Positions 9,337-16,558 of a stretch of 64,000 nucleotides of DNA are shown here, piece after piece. A model generated the notes under the pieces. It saw only the letters and a list, made by a program, of their open reading frames with translations, did no database searches and had not been told where the DNA came from. Numbering within the stretch: position 1 is the stretch's first letter; each line of letters begins with the position of its first letter. The translations under genes were made by a program, and so were the position numbers. This DNA is from Bacilli bacterium (GTDB taxonomy: Bacteria; Bacillota_I; Bacilli_A; RFN20; CAG-826). Where the stretch lies: contig JAXFZD010000008.1 in the NCBI GenBank assembly GCA_034185265.1, positions 25 through 64,024 on the forward strand, written 5' to 3'.

Positions 9337-11472
9337 TTATTCTTTTTCTTCGTTTTCGACTACCTGTGTCGCTTCTTTTTCAGTTTCTACCTCTTTTTTA
9401 GGAACTCTAGTCCTCTTTGGCTTTTCTTCCTTTTTAACCTCATCAGGATTTGGTGGAACATAACCATTTGGTAGTTGACCGTGTTCACATAAATAAGCAA
9501 TTTCTTCAGCAGTAATTGTTTCTTTATCTAATAAGGTATGAGCAATAAGAATTACTTGATCCTTATATTTAGTTAATACTTCTAAAGCTTTCTTATGTGC
9601 GTCATCAATAATTTGTCTAACTTCTTTATCGATTTCATAAGCGATTTGAGTAGAGAAGTTCTTTTGAGTAGATGCATAGTCTCTTCCTAAGAAAACTGAA
9701 CCTGTATCTCTTTCATATTGAATTGGGCCTAAATTAGACATACCCCATTCAGTAACCATCATTCTAGCAATATGAGTTGCTTGTTCAATATCGTTACTTG
9801 CACCAGTAGAAACATCACCAAAGAAGATTTCTTCAGAAGTTCTTCCACCTAAATAACCGGTGATTCTAGCGATTAATTCATTCTTAGTTAACAAGAATCT
9901 ATCATCTTCTGGAGTCATCAAGACATGACCGCCAGTATTACCACGAGGAATAATGGTAATCTTTTGAACTTTTTCAGAATATGGAAGATTGATACCAATA
10001 ACAGCATGTCCAGCTTCGTGGAAGGCAACTTGCTTTCTTTCTTTTTCAGACATTCCTCTATTAGTTTTAGCTGGTCCAGCGATTCTTCTATCGATAGCTT
10101 CATCGATGTCAGCCATATCAATTTCTTCTTTATTTCTTCTAACTGCAAGAATAGCAGCTTCGTTTAAAATGTTATCAATATCCGCACCGGAAAAACCTAC
10201 AGTTCTGCTCGCTAACGCTGCAAAATCCACGTCTTTTGATATTTTTTTGCCGCGAGCGTGTACTTTGAAGATAGCTTCTCTACCTGCTTTATCTGGTAAA
10301 GAAACTGTAATTGTTCTATCAAATCTTCCTGCTCTTCTTAAAGCTGGATCGAGAACATCATCTCTATTAGTTGCAGCAATAACTAAGATACCTGTATTTG
10401 GATCAAAACCATCCATTTCAACTAAGAGTTGGTTAAGGGTTTGTTCTCTTTCATCGTTTCCTCCGCCAAGTCCAGCACCTCTTTGTCTACCGACAGCATC
10501 AATTTCATCAATGAAGATTAAACATGGAGCGGTTTCTTTAGCTTTCTTAAATAGGTCTCTAACCCTTCCTGCACCAACACCAACGTACATTTCAACAAAA
10601 TCCGAACCTGAAATTGAATAGAAAGGAACGCCAGCTTCTCCAGCAACTGCCTTAGCAAGTAAGGTTTTACCTGTACCAGGATTACCAATTAAAAGAACGC
10701 CTTTTGGTAATCTAGCACCATATTTAGAATATTTCTTAGGATCTTTTAAGTATTCAACAAGTTCGACCATTTCTGCTTTTTCTGCATCACATCCAGCAAC
10801 ATCAGAGAATCTAACTTTAGAATGATCGACTCTTTTTGCAGTAGATTTATTGAAGTTAAATACGGAATTAGCTCCGCCGCCGCCTCCAACAGATCTAGAT
10901 AATCTAAAGAAGAAGAATGCGAAGATAAGTACGGTTACACCTACGCTAATAAGTGTTGGTCCCCAGGTCTCCCAGAATCCAACTTGAAAAGCATTACCTA
11001 CTGTGTAATAGCCTTTTGAATCAGGAACTTGCTTAATTAATGAATCAAATATAGAAGAATAGGAAAGGTGAACTAATTGTTTCATTGTTCCATCACCTAA
11101 AGTGACTGTAACAACATAAGATTCTTCCCATTTATGGTTTTCAACTGTAAAAGCATAAGCATGAGCTGCACCATTTCTATCTAGATAAACGCCGCTTACG
11201 GAAGTCATTTTATAAGCTTGAGCAACAGAGAAAGATTGAACTCGTTTCTCAGCTTCATCATAAGGAGTAATTTTATATTCGTATTCATTAGTTGAAGTAT
11301 TTAAAACTACTTTATATCCAATATTGTCATCGATTTTCCCTGCAGCCCACGCTTCAGTATTGTTACGGAACTGAGATAAAATGAGCCAAACAATAAGAGA
11401 AACGAAAACACCTATTGCTAGGTAAGGTAGAATATAAGATAACACGCTTCTGCGTGGTTGTTTATTGTCCAT
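9337..11472 (-). CDS. ftsH: ATP-dependent zinc metalloprotease FtsH
   Basis: Two TM segments, Walker [36 protein letters not shown] zinc motif, GASNDIE. Confidence 0.98.
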
Positions 11473-11532
11473 GAAATGACCTCCTAAATGGTTAGTCGAT
11501 AAAATTTACTATAAATTTTAAAAAGTTCAATA

Positions 11533-12780
11533 TTATTCTCCAACATTTATGTGGAGTTTTAAGACAGATGTGTGATATTCGCTAAATGATTTTCTAAATC
11601 TAGGAACGTAGATAATCTTGCCATTTTTATTAACAAATACTGGCCACATATATCTTAAACTGACTGGCATACCCCAGGTTGAGAATAAGGTTCTAACTGG
11701 TTCTAGATAGCCATGAGGAGAATATAAATCTGAAGGAAGAGCTGTTCTAATTGTAATTGGATAATCTTCTTTCTTTATTCCTCTATCTTCAGCTCCCATC
11801 GAGAAATCTAAATCAAATTCATCAGTGTGAAGTTCTCCTTCGCTTTCTAAAACATAGGTATAAGGAAGGTGTTCAAAATTGCTTCCTACGGTAACTAAAT
11901 CGTATTCTTTAATTAAGTAGGTATCTCCAGCTAACTTAAATGCATCGTTAACCTTATCAGAAAGTAAGAATTTTCTAATTTGTTCAATTTTTGCTGCGCT
12001 TAGCTTAACTTTTGGATCAGTTCTTAAGATAAAGTGGAGAATTGTTGCGCTAAAATCATCTTTAGAAAGAGCAATTAAAGTACGAACATCAAGTTCTTCT
12101 CCAGCGAGAATTTCTTCTCTAACATCTTCTATAAGTTCTAGAGAGTCATGTCTAGTTTGCTTCATTTCCTCGATTAAGTTTTCTCTATCAACTTCTGAGA
12201 GTTTTTTAATGACTTCATAGTGAACAGAAGATTTAAGATGAGCGATTTCTTCATCAGTTACTACTTTTGAGAAAGGAACACTATTCTCAATGTCATATTC
12301 CTCTAAATCTTCAGGAGTAAACTTTAATAAAGGCCTAACAACAACCATTCCAAATTTTGTTGAAACGGCTGAGAGAGAATATTTTGCACTGCTATGTCCA
12401 TTTTGTTTACTGTCTAAGATTGTTTCGATTAAATCATCTTGAGTATGAGCTAAAAACAGCGCAGAAGCGTCATATTTTTCATAAATTTTCTTAAAGAAAG
12501 AATATCTAACGTTTCTTGCCCATCCACGATAATCACTTTCTTTACCTAAAGTATCGCAAGAATTTGTGTCGCAATATTCAAAGACTAAATCGTGTTCTTC
12601 ACAGTACTTTTTAAGATTATTAACAACGTGTTCTTCTTCATCAAAAATCTTGTAATCAATGTAAATAATTACTGGCTTTACACCTTCTTTTTGAAGCATG
12701 TCAACCAAAGCCATAGAAGGGCTACCGTATGTACAAGCTGCTAAATAAACAGAATCTTTATCAAATTTGTAATCTAACAT
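11533..12780 (-). CDS. tilS: TilS (tRNA-Ile lysidine synthetase) homologue with degenerate PP-loop
   Basis: ARNVRYSFF, LFLAHTQDDLIET, VVRPLL and TilS C-terminal motifs; syntenic yabO-tilS-ftsH. PP-loop SGGxDS reads TYGSPS. Confidence 0.8.
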   Translation of the reverse strand: MLDYKFDKDSVYLAACTYGSPSMALVDMLQKEGVKPVIIYIDYKIFDEEEHVVNNLKKYCEEHDLVFEYCDTNSCDTLGKESDYRGWARNVRYSFFKKIYEKYDASALFLAHTQDDLIETILDSKQNGHSSAKYSLSAVSTKFGMVVVRPLLKFTPEDLEEYDIENSVPFSKVVTDEEIAHLKSSVHYEVIKKLSEVDRENLIEEMKQTRHDSLELIEDVREEILAGEELDVRTLIALSKDDFSATILHFILRTDPKVKLSAAKIEQIRKFLLSDKVNDAFKLAGDTYLIKEYDLVTVGSNFEHLPYTYVLESEGELHTDEFDLDFSMGAEDRGIKKEDYPITIRTALPSDLYSPHGYLEPVRTLFSTWGMPVSLRYMWPVFVNKNGKIIYVPRFRKSFSEYHTSVLKLHINVGE

Positions 12781-13043
12781 TGTTCATCCTCCACAATTTT
12801 GTCTTCAAGAATTTCGAACATAGCTTTAGAGTCTGCTTTTGATGCAAATTCTCTAACCTCTAAAACTTTAACTTTTATCCGATGTCTTCCTAATATTAGA
12901 AAGAGTTCATCCAGAGGTTTTATTTCAGTAGATGGCTTTGCAACTTTTGAATTTACAAAGATATCTCCATCATCACATAACTTCTTAGCAATTTCTCTTC
13001 TTTTTACAATTCGGGAAATTTTTAAGAACTTATCTAACCTCAT
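12774..13043 (-). CDS. yabO: S4-domain RNA-binding protein YabO/RqcP (Hsp15-like)
   Basis: MRLDKFLKISRIVKRR...AK...G...VN...AKPS signature; downstream of mfd as in Bacillus. Confidence 0.92.
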   Translation of the reverse strand: MRLDKFLKISRIVKRREIAKKLCDDGDIFVNSKVAKPSTEIKPLDELFLILGRHRIKVKVLEVREFASKADSKAMFEILEDKIVEDEQC

Positions 13044-13084: not shown

Positions 13085-16000
13085 CTAATTATTTTCTTTA
13101 TTTTTTTCGTATGTTCTATGAACGCATTCCATTATTTTCTCTAGTGAATAAATGTAATTTTCATCCTTTTTAACAGTAATTCTTAAAATTCTGTCAACGA
13201 AGCTAACCTTAATTATTCCTAAGAATGGGACCAGTTCATTAAATAGTTCACTTCCGATCCCGTTGATAGAAGAAAATTCCTTGCTTAAGAACAAATCAAC
13301 AGAGTATTGATTATCCTCAATTGTGTTAAATTCTGCAAAATTGAGCAAAATATCGATTTTTTTCTTCTCAAAAAGTAGTTTGACTTCTTGAGGAACTCGA
13401 CCATAAATATCTCTGATTTTCTTCTCAAATTTATCTAGCTCAGCCTGATTCTTACATTCATCAAGCTCTTGATATAAAGATAATTTGTCACTCTTTGATG
13501 CATATTCTTGAGGAAAATAAGCATTAATATTGAGCATTTTTGTTGGCTTAGGTTCATCAATAACTTCTTTTTTAGTCTTTTCTCTAACAGCCTCGTTAAG
13601 AAGTTTTAAATAAAGTTCTAACCCGATAGAATCGATAAAACCAGCTTGTTCAGGACCGAGCATATCTCCTGCTCCACGAATCATTAAATCTCTTTGAGCA
13701 ATCTTATATCCGCTGCCTAATTCTGTAAATTCTTGTATAGCGGTTAATCTTTTCTTAGCGTCCTCGTTAAGCTCTTTCTTTTCTTTATATGTAAGGTAAG
13801 CATATCCAATTCTAGATCCTCTTCCTACTCTACCTTTAATTTGATATAGCTGAGAAAGTCCGAATCTGTCGGCATCTTCAACAATAATCATATTTGCATT
13901 AGGTATATCTATTCCGTTTTCAATAATCGAAGTACATACAAGAACATCTATATCTCCGTTATAGAATTTCTCCATAACATCTTCGATTTCATCTTTATCC
14001 ATTTGCCCATGAGCTACACCAATTTGAGCATTAGGAATCCTTGCTGCTAATTTTGAAGCAATTGCATAAATAGTTTCAACTCTATTATAAACATAGAAAA
14101 CTTGACCACTTCTTGCTAATTCACGCTGAATAAGTTCATCTATTACATCTTGATTAAAAGGAATTACGTAGGTTTGAATTGGCATTCTAGTTGAAGGTGG
14201 AGTATTGATTGTAGAAAAATCTCTTACTCCGACTAATGACATTTGAAGAGTTCTAGGAATAGGAGTTGCAGACAAAGTTAAAACATCAATACTCTTTTTA
14301 AGCTCTTTAATCTTTTCTTTTTGTTCGACCCCAAATCTTTGTTCTTCATCTACTATTAATAAACCTAGGTCTTTAAATTCAATTTCTTTAGATAAAAGTC
14401 TGTGGGTTCCAATTATGAAATCTATTTGACCCTGTTTAATTAATTCGATGTTCTTTTTTTGAACTGATGCAGGAACAAGTCTAGAAAATAAAGCTATCCT
14501 AATTCCAAAAGAAGAAAATCTAGATAAAGCAACTTCATAATGCTGTCTAGCAAGAAGAGTTGTTGGAGCCATTAAGGCTACTTGTTTATTTGCACTTATT
14601 GCTTTAAACGCAGCTCTAAAAGCAACCTCAGTTTTTCCAAATCCAACATCACCACAAAGAAGTCTGTCCATTGGTTCTTCTTTTTCCATATCAGCTTTAA
14701 TTTCATTGATAGATTTTTCTTGGTCTGGACTTAGTTCATATTGGAATTCTTTTTCAAATTGAATTGAAAGTTCATCATCTTCAGGGAAAGCAAAACCTTT
14801 TCCTTTTGCTCTTTCTCCATAAAGAGCCAAAAGTCTATCAGCTAATTCGTTAATCCTTTTCCTAATCTTCTCTTTCTTTTCGTTCCAATCACCTTTAAAT
14901 AATCTGCTTAACTTAGGCTTAACCCCTTCTCTTCCAGCATACTTTCTAACAAGCCTAAATTGTTCTAAAGGAACATATAAATATTCGTTCCCTGCGTAGG
15001 CAATTTGAAGAAAATCACGGCAATTCCCCTCTATTTCAATGGTTTTTATATCAACATACTCTCCAATTCCGTTATACTCATGAACTACAAAATCACCTGG
15101 CTGGAGCTCTTCATAAGACTTTAAAATTGTTGCTTCTTTGAATCTTGAAGTAAATCTAGATGAGCTTCTTCTTTTACCAAAAAGTTCATTAGAAGAAATA
15201 TAAGCTATCTTTAAAGAAGGTATTTCAAATCCTTCTGAAAGATATTTAGATGTTATTCCTACTTTGCCTTCTGGTAGATTAAATTCATCTACTTCTTCAA
15301 AAGATATTTTTTCATTGTTTAACAACTCTTCAATTGATCTTCTTTGCTGCGATTCATTTAAACTAATCACAACTTTATCATTCATATTTATATAGGAAGA
15401 AATTGTAGGGAGAATTGAATTAAGATTTCTTGTAACGTTTGCAATTTGATGGACTTGAAAAATGAAATCTGCTTTTTCTGAATAGAATTCAGTCCCATAA
15501 AGAACGTTTTTCTTTAAAGGAAGAGCTTCAGTTAAATCCATATAATAGCGGATGCTCTTTATTATTTTTCCTTCTAATTCTAAGCTATGGAAAAATTCTC
15601 TTGCTTCAAACAGCAATAAATCTATAGATTTTTCAAATGAACTTTTGTTTGCAATATAAATCAATTCACTATCAAAATAAGAAAGAACGGAATTAGATTC
15701 ATTAAGGCCAAACACGTAATATTTGTAGAGCTGTTCTTTATAATTGTGTTTCTCATAATCATCGATTACTTCTTCACAAATATTATTTAATCTCTTCTTT
15801 TGCTCTTCACTAAATAAAGATAATTCTTTTTCTTTTTCAGCTCGAATTCTTTCAACAAAGGATGAAAGCTTTTCATCAGAAAGAAAAATATCAGAAGCAG
15901 GTAAAATTTCTACTTCTTTTAGAACTTCTTTAGATTCTTGAGTAGACAAATTAAATACACGTATCGATTCAATTTCGTCATCGAAGAACTCAATTCTAAT

Positions 16001-16558
16001 TGGATCAAGAGAAGAAACACTATAAATATCTAAAATGTCACCTCTAGAAGCAAATTGAAGAGAATGTTCTACTTTGTGAGCTCCTCTATATCCTAGATCC
16101 ACTAACTTTGACTTTAATTTTCCTAAATCAAAATGTTCCCCGACCTTTAATTTAAGAATATTGTTTTGGAAATCTTTTTTTGAAGGAAGAAAACGTAAAA
16201 TTGCAGAAGGATGAGTTATTAAAATTTTCTTTCGTGGCTTTAAAAGTTGCCCAAGAGCATAAAGTCTTTGACCCATAAGCTCATTACTTGAAGTATAAGT
16301 ATCGCTTCTTAGTAATTCATCATTGGGGAAAAAGACTAAATCTTCTTCATCTAAGAAGTTTAAAAGAAACTCATATTGTTTCTGAGCTAAATACTGATTT
16401 GAACAAATTAACGTAAGATTTGCCGGGTTTTTCTTAAAAAATGCTGCAAAAAGTAGTCCAATTCCAAGCTTTTCATCTATAACAAAAGAGCCCTTCTTGC
16501 TTTGAAGGGGGGAGGTATCAATTTTAGTAAGTAACGTTTCTAAAATATCTTGTCCCAG
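13085..16558 (-). CDS. mfd: Transcription-repair coupling factor Mfd (probable CTG start, 1157 aa)
   Basis: RGDILDIY, CarD-like RID ([12 protein letters not shown]), [29 protein letters not shown] motif. The frame stays open 94 codons upstream of ORF-track ATG 16276 and encodes the Mfd N-terminal FFPNDELL motif; SD AAGGAG lies 8 nt before CTG 16558. Confidence 0.93.

Follow-up and report, generated by a model that had tools for sequence, protein, structure and literature searches.

A TilS orthologue with a divergent PP-loop in uncultured Bacilli that probably read AUA with a genome-encoded tRNA-Ile(UAU)

Decoding of AUA by a UAU anticodon of the unmodified type is a rare exception among bacteria, listed for nine species in 2013 (PMC3575796) and still described as "rare cases" in a 2026 paper. 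In Mycoplasma mobile, Arg865 of isoleucyl-tRNA synthetase (IleRS), located where a Trp otherwise stacks on base 34, confers specificity for UAU, and the E. coli enzyme gains this specificity through the change W905R (Taniguchi et al. 2013, PMC3575796). Here we describe a related case in an uncultured member of the Bacilli, based on a 64,000-nucleotide stretch of contig JAXFZD010000008.1 (assembly GCA_034185265.1; hereafter the window). The window encodes an orthologue of the lysidine synthetase TilS with an unusual ATP-binding PP-loop. A preliminary description of the window had read this loop as destroyed and had proposed a second active tilS, a change to tRNA-Ile(UAU) in which TilS would serve a non-catalytic purpose, or altered chemistry. 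We consider it likely that AUA decoding in this lineage has been rewired as in M. mobile, and that the TilS orthologue has lost its lysidine role and is held for some other, non-essential one.

The assembly of the window comprises 1.17 Mb with 32.5% G+C and is 87.6% complete. Every genome compared in this study is a metagenome-assembled genome (MAG). The close homologues of the TilS protein come from uncultured MAGs labelled Bacilli, Bacillales, Mollicutes or Erysipelotrichaceae, from rumen and human gut. Transfer RNA genes were surveyed by pattern scans and with aragorn in sets of 41 and 121 genomes. Genera and genomes are referred to by our own labels where they need to be told apart; g1 is the genus of the window and G000 its genome.

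The tRNA-Ile anticodon and IleRS

The anticodons of the tRNA-Ile genes, CAU versus UAU, had been suggested as a check on the proposed switch, and the survey favours it. In the window's genome aragorn found a tRNA-Ile(UAU) gene (G000:C38:3590-3666) together with a tRNA-Ile(GAU) gene. The one CAU tRNA that it reported for this genome, which is 87.6% complete, has a C1-A72 mismatch and is the initiator. Read from its sequence, the tRNA-Ile(UAU) carries A73, C4-G69, U12-A23, C29-G41 and A37/A38, which we take to be the identity features for IleRS. AUA is in use, as had been noted, at 16.4 per 1000 codons in the long open reading frames of the genome, with 3 AUA codons in tilS and 24 in the nearby mfd.

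The genomic position of the UAU gene is informative. Six further families of the order and at least seven further genera of the family carry a cluster of ancestral type, Ala(UGC) - Met(e) - Ile2(CAU) - Ser(UGA), and no UAU tRNA was found in any of them. In g1, g40, g24 and g43 the cluster reads Ile(UAU)-Ser(UGA) and is without Ile2(CAU). UAU tRNAs were verified in g40, g24 and g43 as well, and genome G067 (g43) retains the ancestral order Met(e) - Ile(UAU) - Ser(UGA). A CAU tRNA of the Ile2 type was found in none of the 29 sampled genomes of g1. In a first sample, 18 of 25 g1 genomes have the tRNA-Ile(UAU) gene directly upstream of tRNA-Ser(UGA), as do 5 of 5 in a second, overlapping sample. 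The congener G009, which is 100% complete in 10 contigs, encodes 45 tRNAs that cover all amino acids; its CAU tRNAs are exactly two (initiator and elongator Met), and it also has Ile(GAU) and Ile(UAU). Since the acceptor stem GGACCAU/GGUCCAU is common to the UAU tRNAs and the family's tRNA-Ile2(CAU), and since the position beside tRNA-Ser(UGA) matches, the UAU gene appears to have arisen from the CAU gene by a C-to-T change at position 34. The pattern scans missed tRNA-Ile2 in g23, g25 and g30, and for these genera the CAU type is taken from IleRS-Trp and a canonical TilS only.

Several peculiarities of the tRNA genes were recorded along the way. About 1 kb separates tRNA-Ile(UAU) from tRNA-Ser(UGA) in the window's genome (G000:C38:3590-4746), compared with 3-10 nt in relatives, owing to an insertion. 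In three congeners (L065-L067: G004:C2, G011:C13, G021:C2) the acceptor stem of tRNA-Ile(UAU) is wholly different, CCUCCCU/AGGGAGG with C1-G72, and retains C4-G69, C5-G68 and A73; no covariation of this stem with helix 1 of the second C-terminal domain (CTD2) of TilS was evident in G004, G011 or G021. The initiator tRNA of the genus (G000:C11:44233-44309; also in G009) has the anticodon loop CCCAUAA, in which C33 replaces the near-universal U33, and an anticodon stem of two G-C pairs plus A29-U41, whereas outgroups have CUCAUAA and three G-C pairs.

The synthetase has changed at the matching site. The IleRS of the window's genome is of the bacterial type and ends in ...PLCDRCRNYV..., with CDRCR encoded at C11:32102-32116. 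The site after the second Cys is the equivalent of E. coli W905, S. aureus W890 and M. mobile R865, and here it is occupied by a basic residue. In a residue comparison whose sample is given as 29 genomes, all 17 genomes outside the UAU clade have Trp after CxRC. A tRNA-Ile2(CAU) is confirmed for 14 of them, and the other three count as CAU type on the basis of the IleRS residue itself. Among the 13 genomes of the UAU clade, the window's included, CxRC is followed by Arg in 12 and by His in 1. In the IleRS tree g1 and g40 form one clade (support 100/99), and g24 and g43 fall into a separate clade with a Trp-bearing genus (support 100/100). Because the tree splits g1 and g40 from a g24/g43 clade that holds a Trp genus, the UAU switch appears to have arisen at least twice in the family, a count based on the phylogeny of this single protein. 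The proposed switch thus finds support in the UAU gene at the ancestral Ile2(CAU) position, the replaced IleRS Trp and the lack of Ile2(CAU) in congeners. Altered chemistry, the third suggestion, stays conceivable.

These results bear directly on whether TilS could still be a lysidine synthetase here, serving a tRNA-Ile2(CAU) gene in the 12% of the genome that is not assembled and tolerating its odd PP-loop. The completeness of 87.6% leaves room for such a gene, and TilS enzymes with a related loop, S[YF]GPDS, apparently work in sister genera. We nevertheless regard this as very improbable, given that Ile2(CAU) was found in 0 of 29 sampled g1 genomes, one of them 100% complete, that the slot beside tRNA-Ser(UGA) is taken by the UAU gene, and that the IleRS Trp is lost. 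The protein itself has lost 18 of 47 invariant residues, the PP-loop Asp among them, and the clade tolerates deletions of tilS (see below for both).

The TilS protein and its PP-loop

In the preliminary description the gene was said to be full length and syntenic, with RxxRY, AHxxDD and RPLL kept and TYGSPS in place of SGGxDS. Our annotation agrees on each of these features; the altered loop lies within the interval 12700-12780 for which it had been described. Positions in the window are as follows.

11533..12780, minus strand: tilS orthologue, 415 residues, type I TilS architecture with an N-terminal PP-loop domain and two C-terminal domains
12715..12732, minus strand: PP-loop, TYGSPS replacing SGGxDS (Ser to Thr, Gly to Tyr, Asp to Pro)
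12502..12516, minus strand: RNVRY (RxxRY), with R92 and Y93 invariant in CAU- and UAU-type proteins
12433..12450, minus strand: AHTQDD (AHxxDD), with H112, D115 and D116 invariant
12325..12336, minus strand: RPLL, retained
12220..12264, minus strand: position of the TilS signature D-x-S-N...R-N-x-I-R, here reading VVTDEEIAHLKSSVH; none of the five signature residues is kept (D173V, N176D, R183K, N184S, R187H)
11641..11667, minus strand: helix 2 of the CTD2 helix-turn-helix, PVSLRYMWP, the acceptor-stem-binding motif PxxxRxxxP, retained

The product has the N-terminus MLDYKFDKDSVYLAACTYGSPSMALVDML and matches PF01171 with 92.4 bits; its TIGR02432 (TilS_N) score of 93.8 bits is barely above the cut-off of 93.6. 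A profile built from 120 homologues matched the G. kaustophilus TilS structure 3A2K at E=2e-28 over residues 8-404. The AF2 model of the protein (pLDDT 85.8, pTM 0.77) has the TilS structures 3A2K, 1NI5 and 2E21 as its top Foldseek matches. The suggestion of a second active tilS was not borne out: a PF01171 scan of the 87.6%-complete genome returned no second tilS, and the only other PF01171 protein (276 residues, SGGKDS loop intact) has TtcA as its best family match. A 41-residue Phd-type antitoxin (P0121) is grouped in the 90% cluster of the 415-residue TilS (P0001), which looks like a clustering artefact.

The canonical SGGxDS loop, which is present in the outgroup families of the order, is missing from the window's TilS. 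A sequencing error had been named as one way in which the motif might be refuted. The motif codons, ACATACGGTAGCCCTTCT, are identical in four same-species Logan contigs from separate runs (SRR11487856, DRR507848, SRR11487846 and SRR11928593) that differ from the window's tilS by 9-13 changes per 1248 nt, so this objection falls away. That the motif is unique among 120 homologues might still suggest a pseudogene or a sequencing or assembly artefact. Either is hardly credible, since the four further assemblies are independent, the 415-codon frame is intact, and 8 of 9 to 12 of 13 within-species differences are synonymous (binomial probability 1e-4 to 1e-5, with 75% of random changes taken as non-synonymous).

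Conservation of the loop in relatives, also proposed as a check, separates the changes at the Gly and Asp positions. Among the 120 closest homologues Pro occupies the Asp position in this protein alone, and Asp is present in at least 90%; the commonest loop is TYGPDS (58 proteins), and the nearest relatives, at 60-62% identity, carry TYGADS and TFGPDS. By this comparison the change of Asp to Pro is specific to the window's species. The Gly change has a different distribution. All 17 sampled CAU-type TilS proteins of the family have S[YF]GPDS. Since this loop coexists there with tRNA-Ile2(CAU) and an otherwise canonical TilS, the change of Gly to Tyr or Phe is probably not inactivating. Judging from this co-occurrence, it is probably an old PP-loop variant, shared throughout the family, that does not prevent lysidine synthesis. 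The description of the loop as destroyed therefore stands for the Asp and fails for the Gly, whose replacement is the norm in the family, lysidine-dependent genera included. In the structure of ThiI with ATP, the phosphates are contacted by the first Ser, the second Gly, x, the Asp and the last Ser of the PP-loop, and the first Gly is not among the contacts listed (PMC4041423). This list fits tolerance of the Gly change as well as harm from the change of Asp to Pro.

We rejected the simpler idea that loss of the Gly by itself means a dead enzyme, as S[YF]GPDS is universal in family members with tRNA-Ile2(CAU) and IleRS-Trp, whose TilS proteins retain 45-47 of the 47 invariant positions defined below. 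An AYGPDS variant was also seen, in human-gut bins labelled Lachnospiraceae or Roseburia hominis; the labels are probably wrong.

Losses elsewhere in the protein were counted over 47 invariant columns, defined as those at least 95% conserved in 23 CAU-type TilS proteins of the order. CAU-type proteins retain 44-47 of these positions, UAU-type proteins 28-39 and the window's protein 29. The 18 positions lost here (S17, D21, N42, R46, N83, F84, Q124, R127, G135, K156, D173, N176, R183, N184, R187, I367, D368 and K370) are grouped in the PP-loop, at the residue after strand 2 (R46 to F), in the D-x-S-N...R-N-x-I-R signature and in CTD2 helix 1, which is without the CAU-type residues R364, I367, D368 and K370. 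CTD2 helix 1 reads the acceptor stem, and the PxxxRxxxP motif binds it (PMC11947777). Retained throughout are R92, Y93, H112, D115, D116, E119, R149, P150 and the PxxxRxxxP of helix 2. In a profile alignment H112, D115 and D116 align to H133, N136 and D137 of A. aeolicus TilS, and R92 to R113; we take R113, H133 and D137 of that enzyme to be catalytic-site residues. A set of newly conserved residues, F46, D52, M206, S367, E401, H403 and L407, is specific to the UAU clade.

Selection on tilS and its possible role

The order mfd - S4-domain gene - tilS - ftsH places tilS in its orthologous position, and the adjacency of tilS and ftsH is conserved across the family. The neighbouring genes are listed below.

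13085..16276, minus strand: mfd, upstream anchor of the conserved locus
12774..13043, minus strand: gene for an S4-domain RNA-binding protein (PF01479), whose stop overlaps the tilS start by 7 nt
9337..11472, minus strand: ftsH, 60 nt downstream of tilS

Between close species of the genus (dS about 0.5), the ratio of non-synonymous to synonymous substitution rates (dN/dS) for TilS is 0.026-0.035, within the range of the flanking genes mfd (0.006-0.033) and ftsH (0.030-0.043). Within the species, 1-2 of the 9-13 tilS differences are non-synonymous (dN/dS 0.02-0.045; ftsH about 0.12). Purifying selection on TilS is as strong as on ftsH and mfd. The earlier suggestion of a pseudoenzyme thus covers only one half of the picture.

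Clean deletions of tilS, in which the S4-domain gene is followed directly by ftsH, were found in G134 (g1), G064 and G135 (g40) and G124 (g24), in at least three lineages, and no TilS was found in three g24 genomes and one g43 genome. TilS is present in every sampled CAU-type genome save one, which is 85% complete. Because the gene has been deleted repeatedly in the UAU clade, its role there appears to be non-essential. The S4-domain gene beside the deletion in G134 (L183, G134:C23:45271-45525) contains an in-frame TGA.

The rewiring that we favour would have involved a mutation in place of the tRNA-Ile2 anticodon from CAU to UAU, leaving the acceptor stem GGNCCAU unchanged and the gene still beside tRNA-Ser(UGA). 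Replacement by Arg of the IleRS Trp that stacks on base 34 would have allowed charging of the UAU anticodon, and with both in place lysidine would no longer be needed and TilS would be without a substrate. Among the residues lost are the PP-loop Asp, with its predicted contacts to Mg2+ and the phosphates of ATP, the Arg that follows strand 2, the signature, and the CTD2 helix that reads the acceptor stem; the TilS of the window's species most likely cannot make lysidine or adenylate efficiently. The protein would not be decaying, as strong purifying selection would keep it for a second, non-essential role, one that presumably draws on the conserved fold together with the RxxRY/HxxDD/RPLL core and the RNA-backbone-binding PxxxRxxxP helix. 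Since lineages without the PP-loop Asp are still constrained, the role selected across the clade is more likely non-catalytic, and our best guess is binding of tRNA, probably of tRNA-Ile(UAU).

Several points weigh against this account. Most congeners keep the PP-loop Asp (at least 90% of the 120 homologues), and H112, D115, D116 and R149 are kept in all congeners, which looks like a nucleotide site still in use. The genus-level protein could still be an enzyme, with the window's species as an outlier. The repeated tilS deletions show that the role is not essential. The lack of tRNA-Ile2(CAU) in the 87.6%-complete genome of the window is judged from its relatives, and both the activity of the S[YF]GPDS enzymes (from co-occurrence) and the non-catalytic tRNA-binding role are matters that we infer.

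If the protein were an enzyme, it could be a TilS-derived, ATP-dependent tRNA modifier whose target would be U34 of tRNA-Ile(UAU) or a different nucleotide. It might, for instance, adenylate the C2 carbonyl, as the sulfurtransferases MnmA and TtuA do, and add an amine, which would block U-G wobble and AUG misreading. A new modification of this kind would let UAU read AUA and not AUG, and the family-wide S[YF]GPDS loop might be the first step of the change in specificity; we would put little weight on this scenario. In its favour, G19, D21 (at least 90%), S22, R92, Y93, H112, D115, D116, E119, R149 and P150 vary little or not at all within the clade, the residues from F46 to L407 named above are newly fixed, dN/dS is about 0.03, and the tRNA-binding PxxxRxxxP helix is kept. 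M. mobile needs a special ribosome against misreading of AUG (PMC3575796), so some solution would be needed here too. An enzyme with a new function is unlikely all the same, because several lineages, the window's species included, are without the PP-loop Asp while the gene remains under selection, the old substrate-side signature (D173, N176, N184) varies freely and has not been re-fixed, and the gene is deleted in at least three UAU lineages. In addition, U34 of the M. mobile tRNA-Ile(UAU) is unmodified (PMC3575796).

The position of tilS, 60 nt upstream of ftsH in an arrangement conserved through the family, brings to mind a DNA-binding or regulatory role at ftsH, for which the TilS-HprT complex of B. 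subtilis provides a precedent (PMC8152036). In B. subtilis hprT lies between tilS and ftsH, and in outgroup G028 it adjoins tilS; at the tilS locus of the family it is missing, including from the gap 11473-11532 of the window. A TIGR01203 (HprT) search gave zero matches in the window's genome and in G016, and in congener G009 HprT is not adjacent to tilS. The zero matches weaken moonlighting of the B. subtilis kind, and ftsH is in place and intact where tilS has been deleted. A role at ftsH would also leave the conserved nucleotide-site residues and the tRNA-binding helix unexplained, and we consider it quite unlikely.

The rewired decoding that we favour would have consequences beyond this locus. 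UAU decoding appears to be the norm for several genera of uncultured rumen and gut Bacilli that are rich in species. Each switch is paired with a change of the IleRS Trp to Arg or His, as shown experimentally in M. mobile and E. coli, and so provides a clean natural replication; the switches likewise replicate the predicted existence of Firmicutes that have no TilS function. The clade seems to offer an evolutionary series that runs from a canonical TilS through a working TilS with an odd loop and a substrate-less TilS under selection to deletion of tilS, and the third stage makes it possible to ask what TilS does beyond lysidine synthesis. Proteins of the UAU genera are annotated as "tRNA lysidine(34) synthetase TilS". 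Since substrate-less proteins carry this annotation, genome-based predictions of lysidine for these genera are probably wrong, and the PGAP label "TilS" is functionally misleading.

Comparison with known systems

Compared with type I TilS (G. kaustophilus 3A2K; E. coli TilS/MesJ 1NI5), the protein has an orthologous locus, the same three-domain architecture and fold, and RxxRY, HxxDD, RPLL and the CTD2 PxxxRxxxP. It differs in its TYGSPS loop, in the 18 of 47 invariant residues lost, the signature among them, and in having no tRNA-Ile2(CAU) substrate. It would thus be a TilS orthologue by descent, fold and locus that departs from the enzyme family in motif, conserved residues and substrate, and we do not file it as a lysidine synthetase.

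Lactobacillus plantarum and L. casei keep tRNA-Ile2(CAU) and a canonical TilS in their genomes, whereas here the CAU tRNA is gone and TilS appears degenerate. What they have in common with the window's genome is a tilS homologue together with a tRNA-Ile(UAU) gene in one Bacilli genome (PMC3575796). In the literature searched, neither this clade nor any tilS homologue that had persisted once tRNA-Ile2(CAU) was lost is described.

Two findings in B. subtilis are related to different parts of the system. A G34U suppressor in tRNA-Ile1 rescues a tilS deletion there (Fabret 2011; Kohrer 2014, PMC3919564); in both cases a UAU anticodon makes TilS dispensable, and the IleRS of that Firmicute has Arg at the wobble-contact site. 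Unlike that laboratory case, which started from tRNA-Ile1(GAU), the present one is natural and appears ancient, derives from tRNA-Ile2(CAU), and has the IleRS change of Trp to Arg fixed afterwards or alongside. The TilS-HprT activator of ftsH (Lin et al. 2014; reviewed in PMC8152036) gives TilS a second, non-tRNA function in B. subtilis, and tilS is found beside ftsH in both organisms; here the locus has no hprT, and the genome apparently has none either.

A close match is M. mobile (Taniguchi et al. 2013, PMC3575796). In both, a genome-encoded UAU tRNA-Ile replaces tRNA-Ile2(CAU), a bacterial-type IleRS has Arg where a Trp would otherwise stack on base 34 (C-x-R-C-R), and AUA is a frequent codon. 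M. mobile and eight other listed species have no tilS homologue, whereas a full-length orthologue is kept under purifying selection here. The host also differs, being from an uncultured rumen and gut clade of Bacilli with the standard genetic code, in which the switch would have occurred at least twice within one family. Our analyses indicate that the decoding system shares three defining features with the M. mobile type and departs from it in one, the retention of tilS.

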